From contig CAWCAG010000005.1 of the NCBI GenBank assembly GCA_963793425.1, positions 128,001 to 192,000 of the forward strand: a DNA stretch of 64,000 nt, written 5' to 3'. Below the pieces are notes generated by a model. The model did not search any database and was not told the origin of the DNA. It worked only from the letters and a program-made list of their open reading frames with translations. This DNA is from an uncultured cyanobacterium (lineage in GTDB: Bacteria; Cyanobacteriota; Cyanobacteriia; Cyanobacteriales; CAWCAG01). Below, piece after piece: positions 4,401 to 32,235 of the stretch. Position 1 is the stretch's first letter; the number at the start of each line of letters is the position of its first letter. The position numbers were made by a program, and so were the translations under genes.

Positions 4401-4620
4401 CTATGGAAAGGCAAAACTTCCTAGCTACTTTCCCGTTAGGCAGCACTTAATAAGTAGAACTTGGCAATCTGATAAGAATTTCTGCTCTAGAAGTTACTTT
4501 CTTAACATTGAATTCAGTGTTAACATTTATTCATAGACTTAAATGAATAAAAAAACTTTTTACATAGATTTGAGTCAATAACAACTGCATCACTATATAT
4601 TTAGATTGTCATCTACTTTT

Positions 4621-4827
4621 ATGAACTACCTCATTTTCTATACCATCGGCATCAGTTCGATTTTGACAGGTGTTAGAACAAATGACGAAATTCACCGTTT
4701 AGCCTTAGTCTCAGCGGGTTTAATTGGCTTAAGTTGGGGATATTTTTCTAGCCCTGTACTACTTCAAGGGTTGGGTACAGTTTTGCTACTCGGTTTGTAT
4801 AAGCTTTATTTTGCCCATAAGGGTTAG
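4621..4827 (+). CDS. Small hydrophobic membrane protein (hypothetical)
   Basis: 68 aa from ATG 4621 with 2-3 hydrophobic segments; directly upstream of the antiporter. Confidence 0.6.
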   Translation: MNYLIFYTIGISSILTGVRTNDEIHRLALVSAGLIGLSWGYFSSPVLLQGLGTVLLLGLYKLYFAHKG

Positions 4828-4886
4828 CCTTCTACATCAATCCATCTGTAAACCTTTTAATAAATTAGCCAAAAGAAATTATTACC

Positions 4887-6956: not shown

Positions 6957-8888
6957 ATGGCAAATACTGTTTGTAAAAGTTGGTATCAAACTAATTTAGA
7001 AATCATTCAACAAGAAGTTGAGCGAATTCAGCAGCTTTTGGCAGCTTTTGTAAAAGGTGAAAAAACCGCAACTATCCCACCTCTTGCTATTCCAGAAACT
7101 TCAGCCCTGGGGCAACTCAGCTTCAAGCTGAACCTTTCTTCCTTTGAGCAGACCATTCTCTTACTCTGTGTGGGTATGGAAATTGACCCTTACTTCGCTA
7201 CCTTATGTGCCAAAGCTCAGGGCAACAGTCAACAAAACTTTCCCACATTTGGTTTAGCTCTATCTGTATTTCCTGATGCCAACTGGTCAGTCCTTTCTAC
7301 TCGAAGCTCTCTGCAACACTGGCAACTAGTCGAATTTGCCCCCGGTTTTTCCCTGACTCAAACAGCACTAAGAATAGACAAGCGCATCCTCTGTTATATA
7401 TTGGGAGAAACTTCTCAAGACGAAGCACTAGAAGGGATCGTTACCTTTCCCGATCAACAAATTCCTCTTACTCCTCTACCTCCCTCCCAACAAAACCTCA
7501 CCTCGCAACTAATTGCCACTTGGTCACAAGCTCAAGGTCGATTACCTTTATTGCAATTATGCGGTGCAGATTGGACAAGTAAAGTGCAGATTGCTGAGCA
7601 ACTTTGTCAACGTCTCAACCTCAATTTAGGCATCATCTCCCCTACTGTTCTTCCTAACAACCCCAAAGCAATACATCAACTGCAACGCCGATGGGAAAGA
7701 GAAGCCATCTTAAGTAATCTCGTACTATTGCTGCACTGCGACCAGATCTCATCAAGCGATCCCCTTGTCAATAAATCTATTTCTCTCTTTGTCGAAAACT
7801 TACATACCCCAATAATTGTTAGTACTTCTGAGCGCTTACAAACCCAGCAACGTCCTGTAGCCACCTTTGATGTTACTCCCCCTAGTTTTAGTGAACGAAA
7901 ACAAATTTGGCAGAGTCATCTCGGTACATTAGGTGAAGAGCTTAATGGCTCGGTAGACAAATTAGTTACCCAATTCAATCTTTCTCCCCAGCAGATTCGC
8001 TCTGCTTGTTTGCAAATCAACACCCCAGAACAAGGGAAAGCGACTCTAGAAAGCCATTTATGGGAGTTATGCCGTACCCAAGCCAGACCACGCCTCCAAG
8101 AGTTAGCCCAGCATATTGACACCAAAGCTAGTTGGGACGATTTAGTCTTAGCAGATAAACAGAAAGAAATCTTACAGGAGATACAGAGCCATCTGCGGCA
8201 ACGCAGTAAAGTGTATGAACAGTGGGGTTTTGCAGATAAGGAAAAAAGAGGATTAGGGCTGTGCGCCTTGTTTGCTGGAGAAAGCGGTACAGGTAAAACC
8301 ATGGCTGCCGGGGTCTTGGCTAAAACCTTAAACCTAGACTTATTCCGCATTGATTTGAGTGCTGTAGTTAGTAAGTATATTGGCGAAACGGAGAAAAACC
8401 TACGGCAGATTTTTGATGCGGCTGAGACAGGAGGAGCAATATTGCTTTTTGATGAGGCAGATGCCATTTTTGGCAAGCGCACTGAAGTCAAAAGTAGTCA
8501 TGATCGTCATGCTAATGTGGAGGTAAGTTATTTACTACAACGTCTTGAAGCTTACCAAGGGTTAGCTATTTTAACCTCTAATTTACCTGACTCCCTTGAT
8601 CAGGCTTTTCTAAGACGAATACGCTTCATTATCTCTTTCCCTTTCCCTAACCGCGATGCCAGAACAGAAATTTGGCGAAGAGTATTTCCCCCCCAAACTC
8701 CTACAGAAGGACTCGATTTTCTTAAATTAAGCCAATTAAGTATCACTGGGGGCTATATTCGTACTATCGCTCTTAATGCTGCTATGTTAGCGGCAGATGC
8801 AGATAAACCAGTGAAAATGGAACATATTATCCACGCTACCAAGAATGAGTATGCCAAGATGGGTCGCCCCTTAACAGCAGATTTCTAG
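6957..8888 (+). CDS. AAA+ ATPase of the eCIS-associated (Afp15/Pvc15-like) type
   Basis: Walker A GESGTGKT, DLSAVVSKYIGETEKNL, Walker B LLFDEADAIFGKR, DRHANVEVSYLLQR; N-terminal LSSFEQTILLLCVGMEID region. Confidence 0.88.
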   Translation: MANTVCKSWYQTNLEIIQQEVERIQQLLAAFVKGEKTATIPPLAIPETSALGQLSFKLNLSSFEQTILLLCVGMEIDPYFATLCAKAQGNSQQNFPTFGLALSVFPDANWSVLSTRSSLQHWQLVEFAPGFSLTQTALRIDKRILCYILGETSQDEALEGIVTFPDQQIPLTPLPPSQQNLTSQLIATWSQAQGRLPLLQLCGADWTSKVQIAEQLCQRLNLNLGIISPTVLPNNPKAIHQLQRRWEREAILSNLVLLLHCDQISSSDPLVNKSISLFVENLHTPIIVSTSERLQTQQRPVATFDVTPPSFSERKQIWQSHLGTLGEELNGSVDKLVTQFNLSPQQIRSACLQINTPEQGKATLESHLWELCRTQARPRLQELAQHIDTKASWDDLVLADKQKEILQEIQSHLRQRSKVYEQWGFADKEKRGLGLCALFAGESGTGKTMAAGVLAKTLNLDLFRIDLSAVVSKYIGETEKNLRQIFDAAETGGAILLFDEADAIFGKRTEVKSSHDRHANVEVSYLLQRLEAYQGLAILTSNLPDSLDQAFLRRIRFIISFPFPNRDARTEIWRRVFPPQTPTEGLDFLKLSQLSITGGYIRTIALNAAMLAADADKPVKMEHIIHATKNEYAKMGRPLTADF

Positions 8889-8948
8889 CTTCAATAGCGG
8901 CTCATACTAAGGTTACTAAATTATAAAATAAAAAAAGGTCTTTCAATC

Positions 8949-10970
8949 ATGTCTCAAAGTAGTGCTAAAGCTAAAGCTTCCTCCTGGCAACCGACTACTC
9001 ACGTCGCAGATAAAAATAGTTTTACTAGCCAACCTTTTCCTGTTAAAGCTAAAAATGACCAAGAAACAAAAGCTGACCATAACATGGAGGGCTACAAAGA
9101 GCCTCAACCAGGTGCGATAGTAAACAATATCAACCATTCACTCAAGTCAGGCTCTGCTCCTAGCGGTGAACCTTCACCTTCAACAGGTAGAGGAAGTATT
9201 CAAGCAAAACTGACTATAGGGGAACCAGGAGATAAATATGAACAGGAAGCAGATAGCGTTGCCGCAGAGGTAGTACAAAGACTAAGCAACCCAGCTTCTC
9301 ATGCTCCTAGTTTTGAGGGAGGGAGTAGCCAGATACAAAGGCAATCAGCAATACCGATACTTCCACAAAAGCGAGAATCTACAGCACCAATGCCGTTGGA
9401 CATGGCTGAAACTATCGGGCAAAGTAATAGTGAGTTTCAACAACCACTTAGGCGCAAAGGGGAAGCAAATGTAGTAGAGCCTCAAGAAGATTTGGAATCT
9501 TCGTTAAATCAAGCTAAAGGGGGAGGAAAAGCTTTAGATGACAGCTTTCGTGCCAAGGTTGAACCCATCATGGGAGCCGATTTTAGCGGAGTAAACATTC
9601 ACACTGATAGTCGCTCAGACCAACTGAATCGCTCGATCCAAGCCAAGGCATTTGCCACAGGTCAAGATGTATTCTTTCGGCAGGGAGAATATCAGCCTGG
9701 GACTAAGAGTGGACAGGAGTTGATTGCTCATGAGTTGACTCATGTGGTACAGCAGTCAACGTCTGCTCCTACTGCTATCCAAAGAAAACCTGAAGATGCG
9801 GTCAAGAAAGCAAATACAATTGGACAGGACAAAGTTAACCAAATTAAGAAAGAATGGGAAACGTATCGAAGTAAATTAACAAGCTATAAAGATAATGAAA
9901 AAAACAAACAAGAGTATGACGAGGCTGTCAAAGAGTGGCGCAAAGATCAGACTAAACAAAGACCCAAAGCTAAAGAATACGAGTACAGTTCGCTCCTCAA
10001 AAAACCTAAGAAGCCAAAAGGTTTAAAACTTAAGGAGTTTGCAAAATATGAAGCTTATGAAGAGTTTCAGAAAGATAAAACATCAAGGAGAGGACTATAC
10101 ACCAAAGAAGATCAAGTCTTGATTGACCGTTTGGCAGAATTAGATACAGACTATATTAATGAAGGAAAAAATGAGCCAATTTTTACATTTCCAGAGGTAG
10201 GGCTTATTGAGACAGAAAACGGAGAGAAAATTGAGCCGAAAGAATTATTATTAAATATAGAGAAAGTTGGGAAAATACAAATACTACTTTTTGAAACAGT
10301 AAATAAAGAGAGTGAAGATAACGTCTTAGCCTGGATGTCTCACGGAATTTGGCTTAGGGACAAGCCCAAGGTTGATTTGAATAAACAAGAAGAAGATCCA
10401 AACGATAAGATGGGACTTAGTTTTGCTGTCAAAGGTGGGGAAAATCTCTCATTTGTGGATCCAGATAAGGTAGCAGAAAATGCTGGTAAATCATTTGGGA
10501 AGTTCAAAGATAAAGTAAATGAAGACAAAGAAACCGACAAAGAAAATCCCTACAAAACCCCTCAAGTACCTAACATGGTATTAGGCGCTCATGAGGAATG
10601 GCTTGGCAAAGAATATGAACAAAGAGCTAGCAAAATAGTTAAAAAAGTAATTGATATTGGCTCTGTCGCTGTTCTAGCTAGCTTCGAAGCATCAGAAGAC
10701 TACAAGAGTACTGTTTCTGAGGCAACTAGTGGCGTATTTAAAAACTACATACTGATAGATGATCTTCTCGAAATTCTTAAAGGGGATGACAAACTAAAGC
10801 AATACAAAAATCTCTATATGTTGACCTGTAGAACGGATATAATAGGCAAAAAACAAAGTAAAGACAATTCAGACCCAGAGAAAATTACCGCACGAGAATC
10901 TCCAGGTTATCCAGAGCCTATTAGCCCAAACCAGCTAGACTATACACATGATAATGATAATAAAAACTAA
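8949..10970 (+). CDS. DUF4157 (eCIS core) domain protein with divergent C-terminal putative effector domain
   Basis: IQAKLTIGEPGDKYEQEAD repeat; GADFSGVNIHTD...AFATGQDVFF...LIAHELTHVVQQ (HExxH); K/E-rich linker; C-terminal SHG...LTCR. Confidence 0.9.
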   Translation: MSQSSAKAKASSWQPTTHVADKNSFTSQPFPVKAKNDQETKADHNMEGYKEPQPGAIVNNINHSLKSGSAPSGEPSPSTGRGSIQAKLTIGEPGDKYEQEADSVAAEVVQRLSNPASHAPSFEGGSSQIQRQSAIPILPQKRESTAPMPLDMAETIGQSNSEFQQPLRRKGEANVVEPQEDLESSLNQAKGGGKALDDSFRAKVEPIMGADFSGVNIHTDSRSDQLNRSIQAKAFATGQDVFFRQGEYQPGTKSGQELIAHELTHVVQQSTSAPTAIQRKPEDAVKKANTIGQDKVNQIKKEWETYRSKLTSYKDNEKNKQEYDEAVKEWRKDQTKQRPKAKEYEYSSLLKKPKKPKGLKLKEFAKYEAYEEFQKDKTSRRGLYTKEDQVLIDRLAELDTDYINEGKNEPIFTFPEVGLIETENGEKIEPKELLLNIEKVGKIQILLFETVNKESEDNVLAWMSHGIWLRDKPKVDLNKQEEDPNDKMGLSFAVKGGENLSFVDPDKVAENAGKSFGKFKDKVNEDKETDKENPYKTPQVPNMVLGAHEEWLGKEYEQRASKIVKKVIDIGSVAVLASFEASEDYKSTVSEATSGVFKNYILIDDLLEILKGDDKLKQYKNLYMLTCRTDIIGKKQSKDNSDPEKITARESPGYPEPISPNQLDYTHDNDNKN

Positions 10971-15494: not shown

Positions 15495-16170
15495 TGAGCC
15501 TTTGACGTAAAATAAATTCGGCGATCGCTAAATCTACAGGGGTAGTTACTTTAAGATTGGTTTCTTCCCCCTTGACAATTTGCACTGGTTTTTGACACTT
15601 TTCTAACAAAGCGGCATCATCGGTTACTTGCCAAGCTAATTTTCTGCCTCGTTGGTGGCATTCTTTCAATAGTTGTACTTCAAACCCTTGAGGTGTTTGG
15701 GCTGCCCAAAGCTTGCTCCGATCTGGAGTGCTTTGAATAAGTTGGTCAGCAACCACTTTGATTGTATCTTTAACAGGAACAGCCGCAATTAACCCCTGGC
15801 AACTAAGCAAAGCAGCGGCGCAACGGTTAAACAATTGTGGGGTTACTAAACATCTTGCCCCATCGTGAATCAAAACCCGTTTAGCTTCATCAGGTAGCTT
15901 TTGCAAACCATTGTAAACAGATTCTTGGCGAGTATTTCCCCCCGGAATCAGCATTACAGGTTTGGTTACATTAACCTCAGCAACAATAGCCTTAAAATCA
16001 GGAAAATCTTGGGGTTGACCAATAATACCAAGCCAACTAATTTCCTGGGCTTTTTCTGCTGCTAGCAACGTCCAGGCCAGTAAGGGTTTACCCAATAAAG
16101 TTAATAATAGTTTGTTGCGATCGCTGCCCATTCTACGACCCATTCCTGCGGCGGGAATTAATAAATACAT
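15460..16170 (-). CDS. ispD: 2-C-methyl-D-erythritol 4-phosphate cytidylyltransferase
   Basis: LIPAAGMGRRMG, GGNTRQESV, VLIHDGAR, AQTPQGF, TDDAAL, NLKVTTPVDL. Confidence 0.97.
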   Translation of the reverse strand: MYLLIPAAGMGRRMGSDRNKLLLTLLGKPLLAWTLLAAEKAQEISWLGIIGQPQDFPDFKAIVAEVNVTKPVMLIPGGNTRQESVYNGLQKLPDEAKRVLIHDGARCLVTPQLFNRCAAALLSCQGLIAAVPVKDTIKVVADQLIQSTPDRSKLWAAQTPQGFEVQLLKECHQRGRKLAWQVTDDAALLEKCQKPVQIVKGEETNLKVTTPVDLAIAEFILRQRLITQQETLPDVP

Positions 16171-16380
16171 AGTGAAAGTAGTAGCTTGTTGTTGCCTAAC
16201 AGCTTATCCCGCCTCGTCAACCTCAACAAGTTATATTAAACCCCAGGTACATTTGGTCTATTTGCATATTTCTACTAGTGGTCTGTCATTTTTGCTTTTG
16301 TGCGTTAACAATCTCTAAAACTCTTTTAGGACAAGGTATAAAAAAGCGAGTAACCCATATTATCGAGATTGACAGACTAC

Positions 16381-16408
16381 TAGCCACTAGCCACTAGCGA
16401 TTAGCAAA
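16381..16408 (+). repeat. Heptamer tandem repeats (TAGCCAC/TAGCGAT/TAGCAAA)
   Basis: Four tandem heptamers; a similar run lies at 41887-41928. Confidence 0.6.
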
Positions 16409-16452
16409 AACCAAAATTTAGGCTGTACCTTATTAGACTAGGAATTACTGTT

Positions 16453-16785
16453 TTAACATGGTGCATAGTCAGCAATAAATTGTCTTTTAAAAGGGGACTT
16501 AAATGCCAAAACTATATCCTGTTTAGGAACTCCTGCTTCTACTAATTCGTTGGCTACTCCGATTTCTGTGCCATCACTCTGAATCCAAATTTTGTTATCT
16601 TTGATGTCAATGTGGATTAAGCTGCCATATTCTCTTTCTTGGTCGTACCAGCCTACCAACATTACTAAGTAATGATTGTGTTCAGAATCAAAGATTAGTT
16701 GCACTTCTGCTGCATCATCTTGTAGGTGAGTAGTACGTCTTTTTAATATTTCTTGGACTACTTTTTTATAGTTCAAAGTTTCCAT
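16453..16785 (-). CDS. xisI: XisI family protein
   Basis: LIFDSEHNHYLVMLVGW, IHIDIKDNKIWIQSDGTEIGVANELVEAGVPKQDIVLAF. Confidence 0.93.
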   Translation of the reverse strand: METLNYKKVVQEILKRRTTHLQDDAAEVQLIFDSEHNHYLVMLVGWYDQEREYGSLIHIDIKDNKIWIQSDGTEIGVANELVEAGVPKQDIVLAFKSPFKRQFIADYAPC

Positions 16786-16990
16786 GAATATGTCTCCTGT
16801 TGCTACGCAGTTTTTTTCCTATTTCATCTATTATGTCTCGGTCTTTTTGTTAATGAGTAATGAGCAATAACTCATGAGTTCATGACTGTTATCAATCATG
16901 TTTTTATAAATTAACTTATTTCGTCTCTAAAGCAATTTAAAGTAATGTTCAAAGTTATTGTTTCAAGGGATCTACAATTAAAAAACAAAT

Positions 16991-17299
16991 ATGTATTCAA
17001 TTGAATATACTGAAGAAGCGTTGACAGATTTGGAGTATTTTCGTAAATCAGAACGTCAACTGATTCTCGATCAAGTAGATGGTCAACTTACTTATGAACC
17101 AAATGTTGAAACCAATAATCGTAAACGTCTCCGCCCTAATCAGGTTGCAGAATGGGAATTACGTATTGGTAAGTATAGGGTGTTTTATGATGTTACTACT
17201 CAAGTAAATACAGAAGTTGTCAAAATTGTTAAGGTTGAGGCTGTAGGATTTAAGGAACACAATCAATTATTTATTAGGGGAAAGGAGTTTAAGTTGTGA
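16991..17299 (+). CDS. Type II toxin, RelE/ParE family
   Basis: YSIEYTEEALTDL...WELRIGKYRVFYDV...V.AVG.K. Confidence 0.85.
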   Translation: MYSIEYTEEALTDLEYFRKSERQLILDQVDGQLTYEPNVETNNRKRLRPNQVAEWELRIGKYRVFYDVTTQVNTEVVKIVKVEAVGFKEHNQLFIRGKEFKL

Positions 17300-17541
17300 A
17301 AGTGATTAATATTTCCATTGATTCAACTTTCCTTAGCAACCTTCTTAAGGAAGCGATGAAGGAGAATATTATTTTGCGGACTGCTGAGGGTAGAGAATTT
17401 ATTCTGGCGGAGATTAATGATTTTGATAGGGAGATTGAATTAAGTCGGCAAAATCAAGATTTGATGGCGTTTTTAGAGCAACGGGGGCGAGAAACAAAGA
17501 CTGTTTCAGCCCAGGAAGCGAGACGGAGGTTAGGTTTGTAG
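17296..17541 (+). CDS. Putative antitoxin (Phd-like, downstream of toxin)
   Basis: GTGA overlap with the toxin; 81 aa; LSNLLKEAMKENIILRT..G.EFIL; C-terminal SAQEARRRLGL. Confidence 0.75.
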   Translation: MKVINISIDSTFLSNLLKEAMKENIILRTAEGREFILAEINDFDREIELSRQNQDLMAFLEQRGRETKTVSAQEARRRLGL

Positions 17542-17696
17542 AGGAATTAGACGGAAGTTTCTTTTTCTAGGTACAGTGTTGTTAGAAAATGAATAAGTAA
17601 TTTCTCTTACGTGTATATGCTATTTTAAATGAGGAATAGCAATAATATTTTTCGTGGGTGCGTTGTGGTTAGGAGTAAATTTATTTGTTTTAACCT

Positions 17697-20600
17697 ATGG
17701 ATGAACAGCGTACCGAAGCTTATTTAAACCTGATTGATGAGATTCTCAACTGTCCTCATGAGGAAGCATTTGAGAGGTTAAATGCCCATCCTGATTTGCT
17801 GGATGCTGGGTTGTTGCAGGTGATGTTTCAAGTTGCTGATATCTTAATCATCAGGGAAATGAGAATACGGCAAATGTTTTACTTAATTTTGCTCAACAGT
17901 TAATAAAAGCTTTAAGAAGCACTTCTCCTGTTGTTGTTTCAGAAAAGGAAAGACAGGCAAGATTAAATTTTCTCATAAAGGTACTTCAAGCAACAGATGA
18001 TAGCCAAGGCAATCCTCAAATAGTTTATCCTCTCCTGCAAGCTAATCAAGATAAACTTGATGATACCTTTGCGGAGATTTTGCGACTTTGGGCAGAAGCT
18101 AACTTTGCTGAAGTAGAGGAAGTACAAGCACTAGATATTGCTGCTGTTATTGTTCATTTTAGTAACTTGATTCAGCAATTTCCTTTAGGTAGCAGAGCAA
18201 GTAACCTAGAAATTGCCATTAAGGTTATCAAATAGTCCAAACAGTTTATACTCGCGAGGCTTTTCCACAAAATTGGGCAGAAGCTAAAAACAACTTAGGT
18301 AATACTTATATAAACAGAATCAGAGGAGAAAAAGCTGACAATATCGAAATTGCTATTTCTGCTCTATCAAGCTGCTTTAGAGGTACGTACCTCGTAGAGC
18401 TTTTCCACAATACTGGGCAGATAACCCAAAACAACCTGGGTATTGCTTACGTAGATAGAATCAGAGGGGAGAAAGGCAGAAAATCTTGAAGCAGCATATT
18501 GCTGCTTATCAAGCTGCTTTATCCGTACGTACCCGTGAAGCTTTTCCACAAGATTGGGAAAATGAATCCTTGGCTGGCATGGATGGAGAGTAGGAAGTGA
18601 GCTAATGCTTTCTAACTGTTATTCAGGAGAAAAACTATACTGCGGGATTTGAAACTTTTACAAAAATGGTAGATCTGTTTAGAACAATTTAGGAAAGAAC
18701 AAAGATGGCAAAGTATGAAGACAAGCAGTAATTTCTCAAGGTAGTTCATACTTTATTGCAAGATGAAGATAAGCTAGACGATATTTTTGTGGCTGATGTT
18801 TTGGAAACGGAGCAAAAGTAGATTAGCTGAAGCGGAAGGAAGAAGTGCGTATCGAAGCTTATTTGAACCTGATTAATAGCGCTTCGGTCAAGAGTTTCCG
18901 GTAGAGGGAAAGTAAAAGAAATGATTACCGGTTACAAAGCAGTCATATATCCGTGAAAATGCTAGATTTTGGATAGCCACACAGAATGTACTAGGTTTAG
19001 CGTATCAAAAAAGAATTAGAGGGACAAGAGAAGAAAATCTTGAAGCTTCTATCTCAGCTTGCCAAGCTGCTTTGTCGGTTTGCACTCGTGAAGCTCTTCC
19101 TCAAGATTGGGCAATGAGCCAAAGCACCCTAGGTATTGCATATGAAGGAAGAATCAGGGGGGAGATGGCGAAAAATATCGAATCAGCTATTTCTGCTTAT
19201 CAAGCTGCTTTATCTGTTCGTACTCGTGAAGCTTTTCCTACAAGATTGGGCAATGACCCAAAGTACTCTAGGTAATGCTTATAGAGAAAGAATTAGAGGA
19301 GAGAAGGCAGAAAATATCGAATCAGCTATTTCTGCTTATCAAGCTACTTTATCTGTTTATACTCGTGAAGCTTTTCCTCAAGATTGGGCAGTGACCCAAA
19401 TCCGCCTGGGCAATATCTACGCTAAAAGAATCAGGGGAGAAAAAGAGAAGAATATTGAAGTTGCCATATTAGCTTGTCAGGCTGCATCCGAGGTACGTAC
19501 CCGTGAAGCTTTTCCTCAAGATTGGGCAATGATGCAACACAGCCTGGGGAATGCATACAGAGAAAGAATCAGAGGAGATAAGGCAGAAAATATTGAAGCA
19601 GCTATTTCTGCTTTTCAAGCTGCTTTATCTGTTCATACTCGTAAAGCTTTTCCTCAAGATTGGGCAATGATCCAACAGAACCTGGGTAATGCTTACAGAG
19701 AAAGAATTAGAGGAGAAAAAGCGGAAAATATCGAAGCAGCTATTTCTGCTTGTCAAGCTGCTTTATCTGTTCATACTCGCGAAGCTTTTCCTAAAGGATG
19801 GGCAATGACCAAAAATACCTTGGGTAGTGCATACAGAGTAAAATTAAGAGGGGAGATAGCCAAAAATCTTGAAATGGCTATCTCTACTTTCCAAGGTGCT
19901 TTATCTGTTTGTACCCATGAAGCTTTTCCTGAAGAGTGGGCAATGATACAAAACAACTTGGGAAACGCATACAGAGACAGAATCAAAGGAGATAGGGAAG
20001 ACAATCTCGAAACGGCAATTTCTGCTTTTCAAGCTGCTTTAGATGTACGCACCCAAGAAGCTTATCCTACAGGCTGGGCAGATGACTCAAAACAACTTAT
20101 GCACTACATACATAGAGAGAATCAGAGGAAAGAGAAAGGAGAATATAGAAGCTGCTATCTCTGCTTGTCAATCAGCCTTATCAGATCTATACCCATGAGG
20201 CTTTCCCTCAAAAATGGGCGTGGAGCAAAGGTAATCTGGGTACTGCATATATAAAGAGAATCAAAGGAAGGAGGGAAGACAATCTCGAAACGGCTATCTC
20301 TGCTTGTCAATCAGCCTTATCAGTTCATACCCACCAAGCTTTTCCTGAAGTCTATGTGAACAACTTCCTTCAATTTAGGCTTAGCTTATCGAAATGTAAC
20401 CAAAGGCTCATAGAGGCTTATGATAAGTTGAAAAAGGCTATTGAAGCTGCGGAGTCCTTGCGTGAGGAAATAGTTTCTGACAGTGAAGCTAAGCAGAAAC
20501 AAGCAGAAAAATCAAGCCAGTCTCTATCAAGTTATGGTGCTAACTTGCCTAGATTTAAATAAGCTCGATGAAGCCTTTGAATATGTAGAACGTAGCAAAA

Positions 20601-22021
20601 ACCGTAACTTAGTAGAACAAATTTTAGAGCGCGATCGCAACACAATTTTCCCACCAGAAGTAGCCAAGCAACTAGAAAAATTCCGCGATGAAATAGCTAG
20701 CGGGCAGCAACAAATTCAGTCAGGAAAAGCAGAAAATCATCAAGAATTAGCTGAATATCTCCAGCAATTGCGACAGCAGCGTAATCAATTGCAGGATAAA
20801 TATCTGTCTGTGGGTTCTGGTTTCAAATTTGAGCAACTCCAGGCAAATTTAGCTGAAAATACAGCAATTATTGAGTGGTATCTTACTTCTGAAGAAATAG
20901 TTGCTTTTGTATTGGCACCAGAGATTCTCAAGCTTGCTGTTTGGCGATCTACAAAAGAAGATCATAAGGCTTTAGATAATTGGTCGGAGCTAATGAGTAT
21001 CTAAACGAATATTACACTAACAAAACCAACTGGCGCAACAAACTCCCTTCCCGCCTCAACAAATCTTGCAGAAATTCTACACTTAGAAGAAATCCTCAAG
21101 TTAATTCCTAAAACCTACTCTCGCCTCATTCTCATTCCCCATAGATATCTCCATCTCTTTCCCCTCCACGCATTACAAAGCAAAAGACAAACAACCAAAG
21201 GCGAAATTACAGGCACATTAATGGAACTATTCCCCGATGGTGTCAGCTACGCCCCCAGTTGCCAACTCCTGCAACAACTGCAAACCAGACAACGCCCCAA
21301 CTTCCAATCCCTCTTCGCTATCCAAAACCCCACAGAAGACTTAACCTACACCGACTTAGAAGTAGAAAAAATCTCCTCTCTCTTTTCCTCCCAAATCTTA
21401 CCCGGCAAACAAGCCACTAAAACCGCCTTAACAGAAGCCAAAAACCAACTACAAACGGCTAACTATCTCCACTTCTCCTGTCACGGTACTTTTAACTTGC
21501 AATCACCCCAAGACTCATTTTTACTCCTAGCGGATACTGAAGATTCAGAAGGGAAAATAGATTTAAACAAATGCCTCACTTTGGGCAACCTGTTTGAGAG
21601 AGATTTCAATCTCCCTAACTGTCGTCTCGTTGTTCTTTCTGCTTGTGAAACAGGCTTAGTTGACTTCAATAACACCAGCGATGAATATATCGGTTTACCT
21701 AGCGGTTTTCTTTATGCCGGAAGTTCTAATGTTGTCAGTAGTTTGTGGACGGTAAGTGACTTATCTACTGCTTTCTTGATGCTCAAGTTTATCCAAAATC
21801 TCCAAGCCAAAGAAAATATTTCTGTTCCCCTTGCCCTTAACCAAGCACAATTATGGTTGCGGGATGCGACGAAAGAAGAGTTACAAGTTTGGACTGAGGG
21901 GTTAAATTTAGATAGTACTTGGAGTGAGGAAGTAGATGATTTACTTGCAGGAATGAAACCCCAAGAAAAGCATTTTCAATCTCCTTTTTATTGGGCTGCG
22001 TTTACGGCTGTTGGTATTTAG
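17697..22021 (+). pseudogene. TPR-repeat plus CHAT (caspase-like) protein, multiply frameshifted
   Basis: N-terminal MDEQRTEAYLNLI domain; 40-aa repeats TREAFPQDWAMTQ..LGNAY..RIRGEKAENIE.AI (120-bp period); AFEYVERSKNRNL; ILIPHRYLHLFPLHAL; LHFSCHG and LVVLSACETG; PFYWAAF. Split across several ORF-track fragments. Confidence 0.88.
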
Positions 22022-22031
22022 GAAAATAATC

Positions 22032-22376
22032 ATGTCAATATACGAAGAAAAAGTTAACAACTTTGTTCATTTATTGAAAACTCAACCCAGTTTATTTGCA
22101 GAGGTAAACAGGGATGAATTAGAGAAGATAATTTCATCTCAACAAGAAGATATTAGAGCAATTTCTAATACTATTACTGATTTTTGCCAAGGGTATCCCC
22201 AAGTAGAAGATGCTTTGAGAGAGCTTAAACCAATAAGTAGAAGTTCTAAAGGGCCAGGAAAGACAAAAGCTAATCCTAATATTCCTGACTACGAACACGA
22301 TAAAAAATCAATAATCAACGCGATTCAACAAAGTTCTAGCGGTGAAAACAAAAAAGAAAAGCCAGACAAAAAATAA
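22032..22376 (+). CDS. Small helical protein downstream of CHAT gene (CATASP-like by context)
   Basis: ATG 10 nt after the CHAT stop; 114 aa; helical N-terminal part, SRSSKGPG linker, short C-terminal helix. Confidence 0.75.
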   Translation: MSIYEEKVNNFVHLLKTQPSLFAEVNRDELEKIISSQQEDIRAISNTITDFCQGYPQVEDALRELKPISRSSKGPGKTKANPNIPDYEHDKKSIINAIQQSSSGENKKEKPDKK

Positions 22377-22393
22377 CGCGCTATAAAAAATCA

Positions 22394-22929
22394 TGTCTTT
22401 GGTGCGTTACGGCGCAATATGTTTATATTTAAGTAATAGCTGAGATTATTTTAATGTGCCTAACACACCCTACTCAACTGATTAAATGGAAACCGTCATT
22501 CTTTTCAAAAAAGTCCGTTTAAACGGACTTAAAATATGAGACGGAGAATTAATTCTCCGGCTCCGGCTATGAAGTTTGTCTTTGGTGCGTTACGGCGCAA
22601 TATGTTTATATTTAAGTAATAGCTGAGATTATTTTAATGTGCCTAACACACCCTACTCAACTGATTAAATGGAAACCGTCATTCTTTTCAAAAAAGTCCG
22701 TTTAAACGGACTTAAAATATGAGACGGAGAATTAATTCTCCGGCTCCGGCTATGAAGTTTGTCTTTGGTGCGTTACGGCGCAATATGTTTATATTTAAGT
22801 AATAGCTGAGATTATTTTAATGCGCCTAACACACCCTACTCAACTGATTAAATGAAAACCATCATTCTTTTCAAAAAAGTCCGTTTAAACGGACTTAAAA
22901 TATGAGACGGAGAATTAATTCTCCGGCTC
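22394..22929. repeat. Tandem array of about 2.9 x 183-bp near-identical palindrome-rich units (REP/BIME-like)
   Basis: Units start at 22394, 22577 and 22760. Each has GGTGCGTTACGGCGC...GTGCCTAACACACCCTAC, AAGTCCGTTTAAACGGACTT and CGGAGAATTAATTCTCCG. Confidence 0.95.
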
Positions 22930-22955
22930 TCTCTATCACCAGCGATAAATGATCA

Positions 22956-24320
22956 ATGACAAAAGTTGCTTACCCAAAACTAACTCTCTACGCTTTTCAT
23001 CTTCGCCATAACTTAGCCCAAGGTGAAATAAATCCTGTCAGTAATGCTAATGGTTTGTGGTTGAAATGCCAGGAATTAGGACAAAAACTGGGCATTCCTA
23101 AACTAGAAGCATTACCAAGTTTAATACCAGCAGCAGACTCGCAAGTTACAGGAAATCTGTTACCCGCGAATACTACTTTTACTGCTATTGAACACAACAC
23201 GAATCTACATTTAAGGGGAGAAGTTACCCCTCTATTAATTCACGATACTTATGCCCTGGATTTAACCCTACGTTACCCACAACCAGAAGTAGGAATTGCC
23301 AACTTAAAAGGATTAAACCCCGATAATTGTTTACTACCGAGTTACATTAATGCTTCCCTCGGACAAACCTTGGTTTTATTTGTTCAACCTGTAGGCAAAG
23401 TTACCAAAGAAGCAGATTTTGCTTTAAATTGTGTGGAAGCTTTATTAACTCCAAAAACCTATCAGGAATTACAACTTACTTGCCAAGCAAAAGGGAATTT
23501 ATTAGGTGGTTCTCTCTTTGAATTTAATAACGACGCAACTTCTCCTCAACAACAATGTCATCTTCTGGTATGGTTAAATAGTTCTGAACAAACCAACAAG
23601 TTAGAAGAATCCGGAGAATATTATTACCCTTTAATTGACCTCTTGCTTTGTCGCAGTAAAATAATTTATGCTAACTCCCAAGCTACTTGGTGTTATCAAC
23701 AAGCTAGGCAAGATTACCAACGCTTAGAAGCTAATGTTAATGAGTTTAATCAGCTTAAAGAACGCTCCGTTAAAGATATTTATCCTCAACTGCAACAACA
23801 ACTTAGAGATTTACCAGAAATTGCTTTTAGTTATGGACGTAGTTTACGAGATTTAGAAATACAAAAAACCACCATAAAAACTAATAGCAAAAACTATAAA
23901 TTAAATCTTGATAAATTAAACAAGCTTTGCTTGAAAGAAGACAACTTAGAATTATTTCACAACTTCCTCAATTTAGCCGAAACCACTTCCATTGAACAAA
24001 TCGAAACCAATTTAGCCTATCTTGCCCCCGCCCAAACCTTATTTAACCAGATGATCGAAACCATACGAGGCAGCGTAGAAATTGAACAAGCAAAGCGTGA
24101 ACGCAGCTTAGAAATAACTATCCAAGTTTTTGGGGTGGGGCTGGCAACGGCAGGAATAGTCTCGGCTGCTGTTGGAGAATATAAAGACACACCTATTGTT
24201 ATCGCACCTCAAAAACCAACTCATCCCGCTGTTAACAACCTTTTATTGAGTCTTGTAGCAGGTGCGATCGCCGCATCCATTACTCGGTTATTTGTGGGAC
24301 TTCGTTATAAAAATAAGTAA
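22956..24320 (+). CDS. Hypothetical protein: alpha/beta N-domain, long helical region, two C-terminal TM segments (CATRA-like)
   Basis: 454 aa; PKLTLYAFHLR, IHDTYALDLTL, SLGQTLVL, LIDLLLCRSKIIY; TM segments VFGVGLATAGIVSAAV and LLLSLVAGAIAASITRLFV. Confidence 0.8.
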   Translation: MTKVAYPKLTLYAFHLRHNLAQGEINPVSNANGLWLKCQELGQKLGIPKLEALPSLIPAADSQVTGNLLPANTTFTAIEHNTNLHLRGEVTPLLIHDTYALDLTLRYPQPEVGIANLKGLNPDNCLLPSYINASLGQTLVLFVQPVGKVTKEADFALNCVEALLTPKTYQELQLTCQAKGNLLGGSLFEFNNDATSPQQQCHLLVWLNSSEQTNKLEESGEYYYPLIDLLLCRSKIIYANSQATWCYQQARQDYQRLEANVNEFNQLKERSVKDIYPQLQQQLRDLPEIAFSYGRSLRDLEIQKTTIKTNSKNYKLNLDKLNKLCLKEDNLELFHNFLNLAETTSIEQIETNLAYLAPAQTLFNQMIETIRGSVEIEQAKRERSLEITIQVFGVGLATAGIVSAAVGEYKDTPIVIAPQKPTHPAVNNLLLSLVAGAIAASITRLFVGLRYKNK

Positions 24321-24476
24321 CAAGTAATAGATAATATCAATTATCCTTATTGCCTATTGTCTATGGTTTTTTGCTATTACTTTCATTCTTATCTATCGTA
24401 AGGGTACTTATTACGTAACACAAAGCGGTATAAGATTTATTTAATAGTTGCGAATATATCAAAAGGATCTGACAAT

Positions 24477-26675
24477 ATGACTGTTGCTACAGGGATTCCT
24501 AGCTTTTGTCAAGGCATTCAACACTTTAGTGAAGAACTACCTGAATTTAATAAATATGGACAAAAACCCGCTATTGGGCAAGGAAAGACAGCTATCTCTT
24601 CCCCTAGTGATAGTAATGCTGTTTACCAAACCCTCCTTGGGGCAGATGCGCTACGTTACTTAACCCTGCAAATAACTTCTTCTAAATCTTCCGGACATCC
24701 TGGTGGCTTTGCTAGTATTGCTGATTGTATTGCGGCATTAGTCATGTTGGGCTACAAAAACATCCTCACAGAAGTAGGACACCATGCCCCAGGATTTTAT
24801 AGCAATGTGTTCCTAGATCGTTCCTTAGAAGCAATGGGCATTGAAACAGTCCAACAAATGCGCGATCGCTACCGAGAAACCCATGGACTTTTAGGCCACC
24901 TCTCAGGGCAAATTCCAGGACTTCTTAGCCCGGCGGGGCCTTTGGGACAGGGACAGCATTTTGCTATGGCAGGGGCAAAGCTTCATCCTGACCTACTTTT
25001 CCCTGTTACCATTGGTGATGGAGGTATTGGGGAACCTTATGTGATGAGTAGCTTTGGGCATTTTAATACTGCTTATCCTCAAGTTACCAACTTCTTGCCC
25101 ATCTTAGTTTGGAATGGTTACTCTCAAGAACATCACAGCATGGTTTCCACCAAAACTAATCAGGAGATGATTGACTACTGGGCAGGGAATGGTTTTAAGA
25201 ATATATTCCTTCTGGATGCTAAGGAATACGACGATGCTAACCAAAAGGGTGATTATGTAGATAGCACTATGTTTTCTTGGGAAAATCGCCTCAAGTTTAC
25301 TCAAGCAATGTTAGAAACCGCCGACAAAGCAGCTAAGTCTGCCCTGGGCGGCACATTGACAGTACTGATTGTGAAACAGCTTAAAGGGGCAGGAGTTCAC
25401 AAAAGAGGCGCACAGTCCCATAACCTCTATCCTGGAGATACCACTGATAAAGATTATATCGTCAGTGCCTTAAAGGCCAGGGCTTTGACCCCAGAAGGCT
25501 GGCAATTGGTACGCAACAATTGGGAACAAGCAGGAGGCGGCCCCGCCTCTCAAGTTGCTGTAACTGAGAAGGTTTTGCCCTTGCCGGAATTAGGAGACTT
25601 ACCTTTAAAAGAATTTCCTGTCGGTGGAGACAAGCAAATTGCTACTACTGCTATGGGTGCGATCGCCGCTTATGTGGGTAAGCAAGACTCTAATTTCATC
25701 GTTGCCAATGCAGATGGTAATGCGGCATCGGGAATTAACAACATTAACATTGCCCTGAAAATCATCCACCCCACCACCGATGAAACCTACTATCAACAGC
25801 CTCAAGGTCAAGTATACGAACCCTTAAGCGAAGATGCTTGTGCAGGTTTGGCAGCCGGTTTAGCTTTATTCGGCTCTCGTAGTCTTTGGTGTTCCTATGA
25901 ATCTTTTGCTATCAACGGTTTACCTATTTGGCAAACCGTTACCCAAGCCATGGCAGAGTTACGCCGCCCCACTCCTTCCACCATCACCCTTTTTACCGCC
26001 GGGGCATTGGAACAAGGGCGCAATGGTTGGACACATCAAAGGCCAGAAATTGAAAACTACTTTGCAGGAATGATGCGTAATGGTAATATTTTCCCTTTAT
26101 TCCCCTGCGATGCTAATAGTATTCAAGCTTGTTATGAATGGGCATTAGGTACTAAAAACAAAGGAGTTACCATCACTGCAAGTAAGTCACCCTTGCCGAT
26201 TCGTACTAGCTTGGCACAAACTCGTCAGGCATTACAACAAGGTGCGGTGGTATTACAAGAAAGCGAAGGTAGTAAGAAAGTTGTTTTTGCTGTGATTGGG
26301 GATATGACTTTGCTGCCAGTTTATGAAGCAGCAGCACAATTAAAGGCTGAAGGCATTGGTACAAAGATTGTGACGGTAATTAGTCCCCGTCGCTTGTATC
26401 GTCCCAGCGATACAGCTTCTGACACTTGCAGCGAAGCAGATAATAGTTTTATTGATGATGCAAAGTTTGAGGAGTTGTTTGCTGGGGATGCTTTACTAGG
26501 TATCACCGGGGGTAGCAGTGCGATGTTGGAACCCATCATGCTACGTAGCAATAGCAAGCGAGACACCTTTGCTTGGAAGCGAGGGGAAACTGCTTCTAGT
26601 GCAACCAAGGTGATGGAAATTAATGGTTTGACGGCTGAAGCTTTTGTGAAGCGGGCGAAAGAGTTGATTAGTTAG
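24477..26675 (+). CDS. Phosphoketolase-like thiamine-diphosphate enzyme (transketolase superfamily)
   Basis: SGHPGGF, GPLGQGQHFA, ThDP motif GDGG...WNG, YEPLSEDAC, EQGRNGWTHQRP. Confidence 0.88.
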   Translation: MTVATGIPSFCQGIQHFSEELPEFNKYGQKPAIGQGKTAISSPSDSNAVYQTLLGADALRYLTLQITSSKSSGHPGGFASIADCIAALVMLGYKNILTEVGHHAPGFYSNVFLDRSLEAMGIETVQQMRDRYRETHGLLGHLSGQIPGLLSPAGPLGQGQHFAMAGAKLHPDLLFPVTIGDGGIGEPYVMSSFGHFNTAYPQVTNFLPILVWNGYSQEHHSMVSTKTNQEMIDYWAGNGFKNIFLLDAKEYDDANQKGDYVDSTMFSWENRLKFTQAMLETADKAAKSALGGTLTVLIVKQLKGAGVHKRGAQSHNLYPGDTTDKDYIVSALKARALTPEGWQLVRNNWEQAGGGPASQVAVTEKVLPLPELGDLPLKEFPVGGDKQIATTAMGAIAAYVGKQDSNFIVANADGNAASGINNINIALKIIHPTTDETYYQQPQGQVYEPLSEDACAGLAAGLALFGSRSLWCSYESFAINGLPIWQTVTQAMAELRRPTPSTITLFTAGALEQGRNGWTHQRPEIENYFAGMMRNGNIFPLFPCDANSIQACYEWALGTKNKGVTITASKSPLPIRTSLAQTRQALQQGAVVLQESEGSKKVVFAVIGDMTLLPVYEAAAQLKAEGIGTKIVTVISPRRLYRPSDTASDTCSEADNSFIDDAKFEELFAGDALLGITGGSSAMLEPIMLRSNSKRDTFAWKRGETASSATKVMEINGLTAEAFVKRAKELIS

Positions 26676-28599: not shown

Positions 28600-31500
28600 A
28601 TGTATAGCTCAATTATGAACTCTGAGGAGGCTTTCAAAGTTGCAGACGCAGTTGCCTTAGCGAAGACAGGGAAACATTTAACAGAGACTCAAACCGCTGT
28701 TTTTAAAGGAACTTGGGACAACAAAACCTATGAAGAAATAGCTGAAGAATATAGGTTTAGTTCAGGATACTTGAAAAGAGATGTCGGACCCAAGTTATGG
28801 CAACTGCTTTCCCATGAACAGGAAAACAAGGTTACTAAGAAGAATTTGCGGGCGGCGATCGCTTGGCTAAAAGACTATCAAGTTACTACCCCACCTCCTC
28901 AACCTGAGTCCATTGTTTCAGAATCAAAAACTCTCCCTCAAACCAACCAAGATTGGGGAGAAGCCCCGGATATTGAAACCTTTTACGGCCGCACAGAGGA
29001 ACTTACTCAACTGAAACAAAGGATTGTTGTTGACAAAGTTCGTCTCGTCGCTATTTTAGGCATGGGAGGCATTGGCAAAACCTCCATATCTGTACAATTG
29101 GCACAACAAATCCGAGCAGAATTTGATTATACTATTTGGCGATCGCTCCATAATGCCCCCCCGGTAAAAGAGATTATTAGCGAAATTTGCCAATTTCTTT
29201 CCCCCCAACAAGAGATTGATCTGCCCCAAAACGTAAATCAGCAAATTAACCAGCTAATGACATATTTGCGTTCTTCGGCTTGCTTGTTGGTATTAGATAA
29301 TGCTGAATCTCTTCTCCAAGCTAGCAAGGTGGGGCATTATCAACCTGGTTATGACGATTATGGGGAATTATTTAAACGCATCGGTAACTCCTCTCACCAA
29401 AGTTGCCTAATCTTAACCAGCCGGGAAAAACCCAAAGAAGTTGCCCTCTTAGAAGGACAAACCCCTAAAGTCTGTTCCTGGGCTTTAAGGGGGTTAGAAG
29501 AGAGGGAAGGTCAAAAAATTCTCCAAGATAAAGGTTGTTCTGGTTCCCAGACCCAGGAAGAACAACTCCTGACCTATTATGCCGGTCATCCTTTAGCCCT
29601 AAAACTTGTTGCTACTAACATCAGGGATTTTTATGGGGGACAAATAGGAGAATTATTAACTCAAATTCAACAGGGGGCCGCCCAATTTGCTGATATTAGC
29701 GACTTACTAGAACAACAACTTAGCCGCCTTTCTGGGGCAGAACAAGAAGTTATGTATTGGTTGGCGATTAACCGTGAACCTACTTCTCTGGCAACCCTAC
29801 AAGAAGATATTGTCACCACCGAAGCGAAAAGACAACTCCAAAACTCCCTGATTTCTTTAACGAGGCGATCTCTGGTAGAAAAGGAACGGCAAACTAATGA
29901 TTTCACTCAACAGCCGGCGGTGAGGGAATATATCCTAGAAAGATTTATGCAGCAGATCACCGCAGAAATAGAAACTGAGAAAATCTGCTTATTTATGAGT
30001 CATGCTTTAATTAAAGCCCAAGCGAAAGATTACATTAGGGAAAGCCAACAAAGAATTATTCTCCAACCCGTAGCAGAAAGTTTAGTTGAGAAATATAAAC
30101 AGCCCCAGGAAATTGCTGCCAAACTACAACAAATCCTGGGCATAATTAAAAGCAAATATCACAACTTACCGGGTTACGGCGGTGGTAACATCATCAACCT
30201 TTGCCAGGAATTAAAACTTAACTTAGCTGCCTATGACTTTTCCCAATTAACCATTTGGCAAGCTTATCTCCAAGATGCCCACTTGCAAAACGTTAACTTT
30301 GCTGGGGCTGACTTGGCCAAATCTGTCTTTGCCAAAACTTTAGGCAGTTCTTTAGTTGTAGCTTTGGGTAAAAGAGGCATCCTCGCCACAGGAGATGCCG
30401 CCGGTCAAATTTTGCTTTGGCAAGTAGCTAATGGGCAACAACTTCTCAGTTGCCAAGGACAAACCGGACGAGTAAAGACATTAGCTTTTAATCCCCCAGG
30501 TGATCTCCTCGCCAGTGGTGGGGAAGATTGTCGCTTACGACTTTGGCAAGTGGCAACGGGTCAATGTTTACAAATTTGGTCAGGACACGAAAACCCCATT
30601 AACTGCCTAAGTTTTAGTGAGGATAATTCCTTCCTCGCCAGCGGCAGTGATGACCAAACCATCAAGATTTGGGACATTAAAACTGGGGAATGTTTGCAGA
30701 CCCTTTGTGGCCATAACAAGAGAATTCATAGCCTCTGTTTCAGCCCCAACAACCAGATCCTTGCTAGTAGCAGCGATGACCAAACTGTGAGGATTTGGGA
30801 CATTAAAACTGGGGAATGCTTACAACCTTTTTTTGGTGATAGCAGTTGGCTTGGAGCTGTCACCTTAGCGGTACAACCTTACCCTTTAGGAGAATATCAC
30901 CCAGGAGATCGCCCAGAAGCTTGTTTCGTTGCTGCCACTAGTGATGACCAGATCATTCAACTTTGGGATATCAATCAAGGCCGCTGTTTTCGTACTCTCC
31001 AAGGTCATGAAGATAACCTTTCTGCTTTTGCTTTCAACCCTGATAGTCAAATCTTAGCCAGTAGCAGCGATGATGGCAAAGTTAAACTTTGGGACATTCC
31101 TAGCCGAACCTGTCGAAGAACTCTCAACATTGGCGAAAATGTTTATTCTTTAACCTTCAGCCCTGACCAACCAATTTTAGCCATTGGCAGCGAAGATCAA
31201 ACCGTTCAGCTTTGGGATCTTAATCTTGGTAAATGTCTTAGAACCTTACGAGGGCAACGTAACAAGATTATCTCCTTCGCCCTTAACCCAGACCAACAAA
31301 TCTTAGCTACGGGCAGCGAAGACAAAACTGTGCAGCTATGGGATCTTAACACGGGTAGCTGCGCTAAAATACTTGCTGGCCACCTTGATTGGGTTTGTTC
31401 TCTGGCCTTTTCCCCTAATCAGCAGGTTTTAGCAACAGGTAGCTATGACCACACCATCAAATTATGGCCCATCACCCCAGCAGAGGGCAATGAGAACACA

Positions 31501-32235
31501 ACTCTCCGGGGCCATACCGACAAAATTAAGGTAGTAGTTTTTAGTCACGATGGTAAAATCCTGGCTACGGGTAGCGATGATTGCACTATCAAACTCTGGG
31601 ATACTACCACAGGACAATGCCTCCATACCTTTTCAGGTCATAATCGCTGGATTAGTAGCATCGCCTTTAATCACAACGGTAGTATTTTAGCTAGTAGTAG
31701 CTATGACCGCACCATTAAACTCTGGGATGTTACCACAGGACAATGCCTCCATACTCTTTGTGGTCATAGCGATCGCATTCATACCCTCAGTTTCAATCCC
31801 ACCCAACTTACCTTAGCCAGTGGTAGTCATGACCAAAGCATCAAACTCTGGGACTTAAATAATGGTGAATGTTGGCAAACTTGGCCCAGCCGCAGCCAAA
31901 TAATTCAAGCAGTAACTTTTAATCCCCAAGGACAATTATTTGTTGCAGGAAGTTGTGATCATCAGATCCAGTGGTGGCAACCAGATCACGAAGAAGTTAC
32001 CACCTTCTCGAAATGCAACAATCCCATTTGGTTAGTTAACTTTAGTCCCTTTGGTAAGATGATCATCAGCGCTAGCCAAGACCGTACTATTGAACTTTGG
32101 AACCGGGAAACTAGCCAATGCCTAAAAACCCTAAGAACTGATAAACCCTACGACGGTACTAATATTCAAGGAGTTACGGGCATCACCCCAGCCCAACAAG
32201 CCACCTTGAAAGCTTTAGGGGCGCATTCCTTTTAG
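28600..32235 (+). CDS. STAND NTPase: N-terminal HTH-like domain, NB-ARC, pentapeptide-like segment, WD40 repeats
   Basis: DWGEAPD, GMGGIGKT, WRSLHNAP, LLVLDNAE, GHPLALK; about 14 WD repeats (LASGSDDQTIKIWD); KPYDGTNI terminus. Confidence 0.93.
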   Translation: MYSSIMNSEEAFKVADAVALAKTGKHLTETQTAVFKGTWDNKTYEEIAEEYRFSSGYLKRDVGPKLWQLLSHEQENKVTKKNLRAAIAWLKDYQVTTPPPQPESIVSESKTLPQTNQDWGEAPDIETFYGRTEELTQLKQRIVVDKVRLVAILGMGGIGKTSISVQLAQQIRAEFDYTIWRSLHNAPPVKEIISEICQFLSPQQEIDLPQNVNQQINQLMTYLRSSACLLVLDNAESLLQASKVGHYQPGYDDYGELFKRIGNSSHQSCLILTSREKPKEVALLEGQTPKVCSWALRGLEEREGQKILQDKGCSGSQTQEEQLLTYYAGHPLALKLVATNIRDFYGGQIGELLTQIQQGAAQFADISDLLEQQLSRLSGAEQEVMYWLAINREPTSLATLQEDIVTTEAKRQLQNSLISLTRRSLVEKERQTNDFTQQPAVREYILERFMQQITAEIETEKICLFMSHALIKAQAKDYIRESQQRIILQPVAESLVEKYKQPQEIAAKLQQILGIIKSKYHNLPGYGGGNIINLCQELKLNLAAYDFSQLTIWQAYLQDAHLQNVNFAGADLAKSVFAKTLGSSLVVALGKRGILATGDAAGQILLWQVANGQQLLSCQGQTGRVKTLAFNPPGDLLASGGEDCRLRLWQVATGQCLQIWSGHENPINCLSFSEDNSFLASGSDDQTIKIWDIKTGECLQTLCGHNKRIHSLCFSPNNQILASSSDDQTVRIWDIKTGECLQPFFGDSSWLGAVTLAVQPYPLGEYHPGDRPEACFVAATSDDQIIQLWDINQGRCFRTLQGHEDNLSAFAFNPDSQILASSSDDGKVKLWDIPSRTCRRTLNIGENVYSLTFSPDQPILAIGSEDQTVQLWDLNLGKCLRTLRGQRNKIISFALNPDQQILATGSEDKTVQLWDLNTGSCAKILAGHLDWVCSLAFSPNQQVLATGSYDHTIKLWPITPAEGNENTTLRGHTDKIKVVVFSHDGKILATGSDDCTIKLWDTTTGQCLHTFSGHNRWISSIAFNHNGSILASSSYDRTIKLWDVTTGQCLHTLCGHSDRIHTLSFNPTQLTLASGSHDQSIKLWDLNNGECWQTWPSRSQIIQAVTFNPQGQLFVAGSCDHQIQWWQPDHEEVTTFSKCNNPIWLVNFSPFGKMIISASQDRTIELWNRETSQCLKTLRTDKPYDGTNIQGVTGITPAQQATLKALGAHSF

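Follow-up and report, generated by a model that had tools for sequence, protein, structure and literature searches.

A probably decayed copy of a conserved cyanobacterial TPR-CHAT protease module and its likeness to CATRA conflict systems

This work deals with positions 17697-24320 of a 64,000-nucleotide (nt) stretch of a cyanobacterial genome, hereafter called the window, to which all coordinates refer. The initial annotation placed three co-oriented genes here. Three coding regions do follow one another on the + strand: one for tetratricopeptide repeats (TPR) joined to a CHAT protease domain (17697-22021), an open reading frame (ORF) for a small protein of 114 amino acids (aa; 22032-22376), and an open ORF for an effector-type protein of 454 aa (22956-24320); the TPR-CHAT region, however, is not one gene. 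With moderate confidence, we read the trio as the decayed version of a conserved three-gene module, found among the filamentous members of one cyanobacterial order, that would operate as a conflict switch, distantly analogous to the CATRA systems. This reading draws on gene linkage, protein fusions, swapping of the effector, domain architecture and the breakage in the window. Given the rearrangement and the frameshifts of the protease gene, and the 536-bp repeat array that splits the two downstream genes, the switch is most likely inactive in this genome, even though the small ORF and the 454-aa ORF have remained open and conserved.

The protease region begins with a 5' piece (17697-18557, + strand) that encodes an N-terminal helical domain and about 2.5 TPR units. 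It continues with a non-coding-like insert of 368 nt (18558-18925), the main TPR array (18925-20350, + strand) and a TPR-to-CHAT linker region (20350-21004, + strand), and ends with the CHAT domain (21005-22021, + strand), which matched PF12770 at E 1.2e-52 in a profile search of the window proteins. The TPR units form a tandem array with a 138-nt period and 9.5 copies. Both catalytic motifs reported in the initial annotation are in place, HFSCHG from nt 21470 and LSACETG from nt 21635 onward, and an alignment of 66 sequences shows no variation in the columns of the catalytic His and Cys (66/66). The proposal of an intact protease gene does not hold. In the ORF listing, the region is scattered over all three + frames in at least nine stop-to-stop pieces, and no single ORF of the window could give the full-length enzyme. 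Intact orthologues were aligned to the window DNA in a frameshift-aware manner, which mapped at least ten frame changes: two in the N-terminal domain (near 17839-17845 and near 18222), three in the TPR array (near 19243, 20084 and 20184), four in the linker (near 20365-20371, 20400-20406, 20521 and 20985-20994, the last around 20991) and one in the CHAT domain (near 21064). The frame also moves near 18470-18490, in the 5' piece. The same alignment shows no true nonsense codon in the corrected TPR-CHAT frame, the apparent stop at 21002 being the consequence of a frameshift, and the corrected linker and CHAT part is 62-64% identical to the orthologues.

Besides the frame changes, the gene is interrupted by the insert at 18558-18925, which has a single occurrence in the genome. 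Because this segment shows no TPR homology and closes with the degenerate N-terminus of a second TPR-CHAT gene (18839-18904, recognized from weak blastx matches and a peptide read by eye from the DNA), the region 17697-22021 is a composite of gene pieces. It begins with the 5' portion of a first gene, passes into an intergenic-like piece that retains what is left of the start of a second gene, and continues into a TPR array with its linker and CHAT domain. In Mastigocoleus testarum (locus L017, 1434-9442), two tandem TPR-CHAT genes are found upstream of the small and 454-type genes, and the composite could derive from a tandem of this kind. The genome of the window harbors about 19 CHAT loci.

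We hold it as very probable that the breakage of the protease gene is genuine. Alternatively, the gene would be intact in the organism and the system of the window functional, the frame changes being consensus or assembly artefacts in a repeat-rich and strain-variable region. This explanation, which we regard as quite unlikely, would account for disruptions that are all indels of 1-2 nt in a gene whose corrected frame is free of nonsense codons and still close to its orthologues. It also finds some support in a metagenome comparison, for which contigs of four runs from one study were placed on the locus. Across the 454-aa gene, these contigs show 0-3 differences from the window in 1501 nt; over the CHAT region, they represent a ∼95% identical variant with indels at the frame-change sites of the window (20359, 20395, 20522, 21065, 20913-20989 and 20043-20326). 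From arithmetic on these positions, we infer that the indels cancel the frame changes and that the variant keeps an open frame at the places where that of the window is shifted. However, the variant differs by ∼5% substitutions and is therefore another allele, not a corrected read of the same one. Moreover, the assembly is not generally error-prone, since 109 of its stop-to-stop ORFs reach 1000 aa or more and its other TPR-CHAT genes (1145-1611 aa) are open. Several indel sites lie outside homopolymers, and a structural rearrangement that leaves a second N-terminus remnant is a change that indel errors cannot produce. In two of the four runs, contigs connect 18730 straight to 17600, which indicates a rearrangement between strains. 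An 11-nt identity is found in the window between 18727-18737 and 17596-17606, the stretches concerned being 18565-18730 and 17600-17702.

The small ORF opens at 22032, 10 nt past the CHAT stop at 22021 in the ORF listing, in agreement with the initial annotation; a TTG alternative start at 22011 would lengthen the product to 121 aa. Its AlphaFold2 (AF2) model has a predicted local distance difference test score (pLDDT) of 73; in it, residues 3-65 fold into a five-helix bundle, 68-79 form a disordered linker and 91-102 a further helix. The exposed basic linker that had been noticed in the sequence is recovered in this model, S-K-G-P-G lying inside the 68-79 stretch where pLDDT is below 50. Across the family, the linker provides the best-conserved non-helical columns, with a basic residue in 100, a proline in 74 and a glycine in 86 of 131 sequences; intact members have about 115 aa, a conserved basic-[GA]-P-G linker motif and a short C-terminal helix. 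A tryptophan column (128/131) is occupied by phenylalanine in the protein of the window. An exhaustive search assigned 345 representative clusters to the family (E≤0.001). A fold search with the small protein gave no match at E≤0.001, and a structure search of the Atlas returned only unnamed cyanobacterial clusters. Homotypic pairing between its helical domain and the N-terminal domain of TPR-CHAT was considered and rejected (hhalign probability of 0.1%). In nine of 56 small proteins, of the Coleofasciculus and Symploca type, the small-protein domain is fused behind DUF2887 (best E 2.1e-83), which results in products of 321-410 aa (loci L023, L024, L031, L032, L034, L057, L058, L066 and L069).

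The spacer between the small and 454-aa genes measures 579 nt in the window, compared with less than 250 nt at most orthologous loci and less than 400 nt at all but one of them (L013, 405 nt). It is filled by a 183-bp tandem repeat (22394-22929) of 2.9 copies that are 99% identical. Each unit carries three short perfect palindromes, and a 50-63 nt part of it (unit positions 115-177) is present at five other sites of the genome. On 170-nt metagenome contigs, the repeat unit reaches 1.65-2.1 times the flanking depth. A search of Rfam over 16000-25000 gave two chance-level matches, both inside this repeat. In a promoter and terminator scan, promoter-like sites were not enriched; terminator-like hairpins were, owing to the 183-bp repeat.

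The third gene (22956-24320, + strand) codes for the 454-aa protein, whose AF2 model was built on a 74-row alignment and reaches a pLDDT of 86.4 and a predicted TM-score (pTM) of 0.80. It shows an alpha/beta head (residues 1-220), a stalk of three long helices (223-267, 272-324 and 332-398), a low-confidence loop and a last helix (424-453); hydrophobic segments are located at about 384-407 and 424-449. Model and hydrophobicity thus agree with the domain order proposed initially, namely an alpha/beta N-domain, a helical region and two C-terminal hydrophobic segments. The corresponding protein of intact copies measures about 460 aa. In the same vein, the motifs singled out at that stage (IHDTYALDLTL, SLGQTLVL, SLFEF and HLLVWL) correspond to conserved columns of the 454-type family. 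The protein of the window deviates at four of 58 highly conserved columns, all in one motif, which is within the normal range of the family. A Foldseek search against the PDB yielded almost exclusively CorA-family chains as top matches (probability up to 0.97, E 3.8e-4). The predicted likeness to the metal-ion channels CorA, ZntB and Mrs2 would lie in a cytoplasmic head of alpha/beta type and in a long helix of the stalk that leads into the membrane as the first of two membrane helices. The 454-aa protein differs from them by a global TM-score of only 0.15-0.26 and by the lack of a sequence match to any solved chain, a search of solved structures with the family profile giving chance-level coiled-coil matches only. 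On these model-based grounds, we read it as a predicted CorA-like membrane effector with two transmembrane helices.

The trio belongs to a conserved family. We surveyed 79 homologous loci in reference genomes, 71 of them with at least 1500 nt and 75 with at least 500 nt of upstream flank. A CHAT-coding stretch is found within 3 kb upstream on the same strand at 67 of the 71 loci, mostly as single ORFs of ∼1000-2200 aa; it is missing at the remaining four (L039, L047, L065 and L074). A profile search places a small-protein ORF within 1.5 kb upstream at 73 of 75 loci, L039 and L065 being without a match, although 55 of these loci had served to build the profile and only the others count as independent detections; tblastn detected the small protein at 52 of 71 loci. 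A permuted order (small, 454-type, CHAT-TPR) occurs on a Pseudanabaena plasmid. Distances between 454-type proteins correlate with those between the adjacent CHAT domains (Mantel r of 0.89 over 56 loci, a value reached by none of 999 permutations), a correlation to which shared species history contributes. The three-gene layout proposed from the window alone is thus a conserved unit. The test set in advance was whether the downstream genes are conserved beside TPR-CHAT genes, and they clearly are.

A word-based search with the 454-aa protein retrieved 253 homologues (E≤0.001), all the named ones being cyanobacterial 'hypothetical proteins', and no Pfam domain was found in these homologues except in a CHAT-fused form. 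The family profile matches 49 of 301 sampled cyanobacterial genomes and 34 of 134 genera, all in the order of the window. Several genomes hold at least five matches, with up to eight in one of them (G012), and many fragments carry stop codons. Copies are also present on seven cyanobacterial plasmids, including mobilizable and conjugative ones. The genome of the window contains one full copy of the 454-type gene and one short fragment on another contig. This fragment (G000:C9:140608-140865) corresponds to that end of the 454-type profile which covers the membrane tail (E 1.9e-9), contains one internal TAA and is probably the remnant of a second copy. A same-genus genome encodes only a 28% identical paralogue, and a quick tree puts the window copy on a long branch in a well-supported clade mostly from heterocystous genera. 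Fusions and domain swaps provide a further line of evidence. The N-module is followed by CHAT in place of the membrane tail in one protein (P0116), and by a bDLD1 Death-like domain and Trypsin_2 in another (P0125); one ORF of 1249 aa unites TPRs, a partial CHAT domain and a 454-type module; and P0274, which does not match the 454-aa family profile, combines the small-protein domain with a CHAT protease. A conflict system that keeps its adaptor constant and varies its effector would be expected to show such architectures.

A passage of PMC8195603 credits CATRA to Kaur et al. 2020 and Burroughs & Aravind 2020; the passages found in the former (PMC7159879) do not use the word, and a 2026 preprint does no more than spell out the abbreviation. 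According to passages of PMC8195603 and PMC12657218, its gene context comprises a TPR caspase-fold protease, a small protein and a swappable effector position, and passages of PMC12657218 describe it as phyletically restricted. The present family resembles it in several respects: an adjacent TPR caspase-fold protease at 67 of 71 loci (broken in the window), a small associated protein in a three-gene unit (73/75), a larger protein whose C-terminal effector position varies, as in P0116 and P0125, and a restricted phyletic spread. The sequence models give another picture. The Pfam models CATRA-N (PF20269), CATRA-C (PF20270) and CATASP (PF20271) matched neither the window proteins (E≤0.01) nor the six-frame translated genome, and none of the three was among the 25 most frequent of 127 families matched at E≤5 by 74 large members, or among the 25 most frequent of 89 families matched at the same threshold by 56 small members. 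CATRA-N matched none of the 301 cyanobacterial genomes; it was also unmatched in five Streptomyces replicons (9.2 Mb) used as a control, so that the model matched nothing in any set and its sensitivity is unproven, and the annotation around two Streptomyces CHAT matches carried no CATRA names. The two-helix membrane hairpin in the effector position is another difference.

At the structural level, the Atlas search aligned 378 residues of its model for the 454-aa protein with an actinobacterial cluster (TM-score of 0.65 by query and 0.55 by target, both structures being predicted) that is named 'CATRA conflict system CASPASE/TPR repeat-associated protein' and contains CATRA-N in 98% and CATRA-C in 96% of its members. 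The similarity to CATRA that had been suggested from sequence motifs is partly supported, by one comparison of predicted structures and by no profile match at any level tried. It is conceivable, if rather unlikely, that no evolutionary relation to CATRA exists and that the structural match reflects a head/stalk/hairpin architecture common to CorA, DUF3422 and others. The silence of the three Pfam models fits this explanation, as do the DUF3422 (TM-score of 0.51-0.55) and MJ0711_N (0.49) entries of the same Atlas search and the exclusively unnamed cyanobacterial matches of the small protein. Yet the CATRA cluster ranks ahead of these two as the best named structural match, and the gene context that gives CATRA its name (passages of PMC8195603 and PMC12657218) is shared. 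We thus read the module as a distant, unnamed, CATRA-like caspase-dependent system that is probably related, at a distance, to the CATRA ternary systems. CATRA is its nearest described analogue, and membership is shown by no sequence model. Cyanobacterial members may already be listed in the supplements of Burroughs & Aravind 2020.

In analogy with the CATRA ternary systems, the intact module would act as a caspase-dependent conflict switch of the abortive-infection or cell-death type. The TPR array or the N-domain would sense a trigger, upon which the CHAT protease would cut the small protein in its exposed linker, or the effector itself. The freed membrane protein would then oligomerize and permeabilize the membrane. 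This sequence of events, from the cut latch or effector to permeabilization, is suggested by architecture and gene context only. A more specific version can be put forward tentatively, in which the small protein would be a protease-cleavable latch holding the CorA-like effector closed, and the cut of the basic-G-P-G linker would open a lethal pore. Multicellular cyanobacteria would then possess a caspase/latch/channel death switch made of non-gasdermin parts, whose head-stalk would serve as a general adaptor that also carries Death-like plus trypsin, or CHAT, effectors.

The surroundings of the locus bear on this proposal. The upstream neighbors are XisI, a ParE-family toxin gene of 102 aa that does not belong to the module (16991-17299, + strand; PF05016 ParE_toxin, E 5.5e-6) and an 81-aa ORF (17296-17541, + strand) that overlaps the ParE stop in the ORF listing and could encode an antitoxin. 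The toxin half of the toxin-antitoxin pair described beside the module is thus supported, but the 81-aa ORF matches no family. The defence-island setting put forward with it is not supported, because the flanking genes on both sides are housekeeping ones (IspD, HtrA, spermidine synthase, a phosphoketolase-like gene, a response regulator and ATP synthase beta); the PADLOC matches around the module are all generic, for example that of an AAA gene to IetA or that of HtrA to protease models. Further away in the window, a winged-helix and AAA ATPase gene (PADLOC IetA-like, E 2.1e-30) followed by a gene for a 673-aa protein with an eCIS_core domain spans 6957-10967. A 124-aa ORF at 11271-11642 matches a cytochrome P450 profile at positions 405-444 of 462 only and may be a gene fragment. 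A 1211-aa protein (28600-32232) displays a long WD40 array in its C-terminal half, its N-terminal ∼540 residues lying outside the WD40 stretches. No ORF of at least 150 aa is found in 1-4886 (4.9 kb) or 60649-64000 (3.4 kb).

Several of these observations weigh against a decayed conflict switch related to CATRA. Apart from the housekeeping flanks, neither PADLOC nor NCBIfam nor any of the Pfam CATRA models matches the two downstream proteins, and the CATRA link comes from a single comparison between two structures that are both predicted. With 58% identity across heterocystous genera, the family shows a fair degree of conservation, which suits a physiological role too. In the CorA/MIT superfamily, a GMN motif follows the first membrane helix, and residues 381-454 of the 454-aa protein contain none. 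The basic residue, proline and glycine of the linker occur together in just 45 of 131 small proteins. Breaks that are all indels, with no nonsense codon, leave some room for a consensus artefact. Finally, no experiment on any family member was found in the literature searched. The module could instead be a physiological circuit of regulated proteolysis in filamentous cyanobacteria that gates a CorA-like ion channel or a membrane-remodelling protein, with no part in immunity or death; the CHAT protease HetF, which has a role in Anabaena, offers a comparison. A chromosomal locus between housekeeping genes, the lack of a PADLOC match for the module, the confinement of a well-conserved family to one order and the CorA-like architecture would all be compatible with this role. 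We nonetheless consider it improbable in view of the multiple divergent paralogues per genome with their many decayed fragments, the replacement of the effector by CHAT or by a Death-like domain and trypsin, the copies on mobilizable and conjugative plasmids, and the absence of the module from the closest relatives of the window, where the same-genus genome has just the 28% identical paralogue.

The conflict-switch reading that we favor also has counterparts among characterized systems. In the type III-E CRISPR Craspase, the TPR-CHAT protease Csx29 cuts Csx30, and the module likewise combines a TPR-CHAT protease with a partner encoded beside it that is thought to be its substrate. The CHAT fragment of the window matches NCBIfam Csx29 (NF041237) with E 5.8e-18 and 65.1 bits, well short of the curated cut-off of 300 bits. 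Unlike Craspase, the module has no CRISPR or gRAMP context and its partner proteins have no detected family match. Bacterial gasdermin systems, in which a neighboring caspase-like protease releases a membrane-permeabilizing protein, share the proposed release logic. They differ in that the modelled 454-aa protein is a helical head/stalk/hairpin, unlike the gasdermin fold, and that a separate small protein stands between protease and effector.

To conclude, the broken copy of the window is of use chiefly because it documents the decay of such systems. Multicellular cyanobacteria are rich in caspase-like proteases, and almost none of these has a known substrate. Since the module pairs one CHAT clade with two fixed partners, it offers a candidate substrate and effector pair to test. 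Besides, it would carry the CATRA idea, so far computational only, into a new phylum and add a membrane effector to it.

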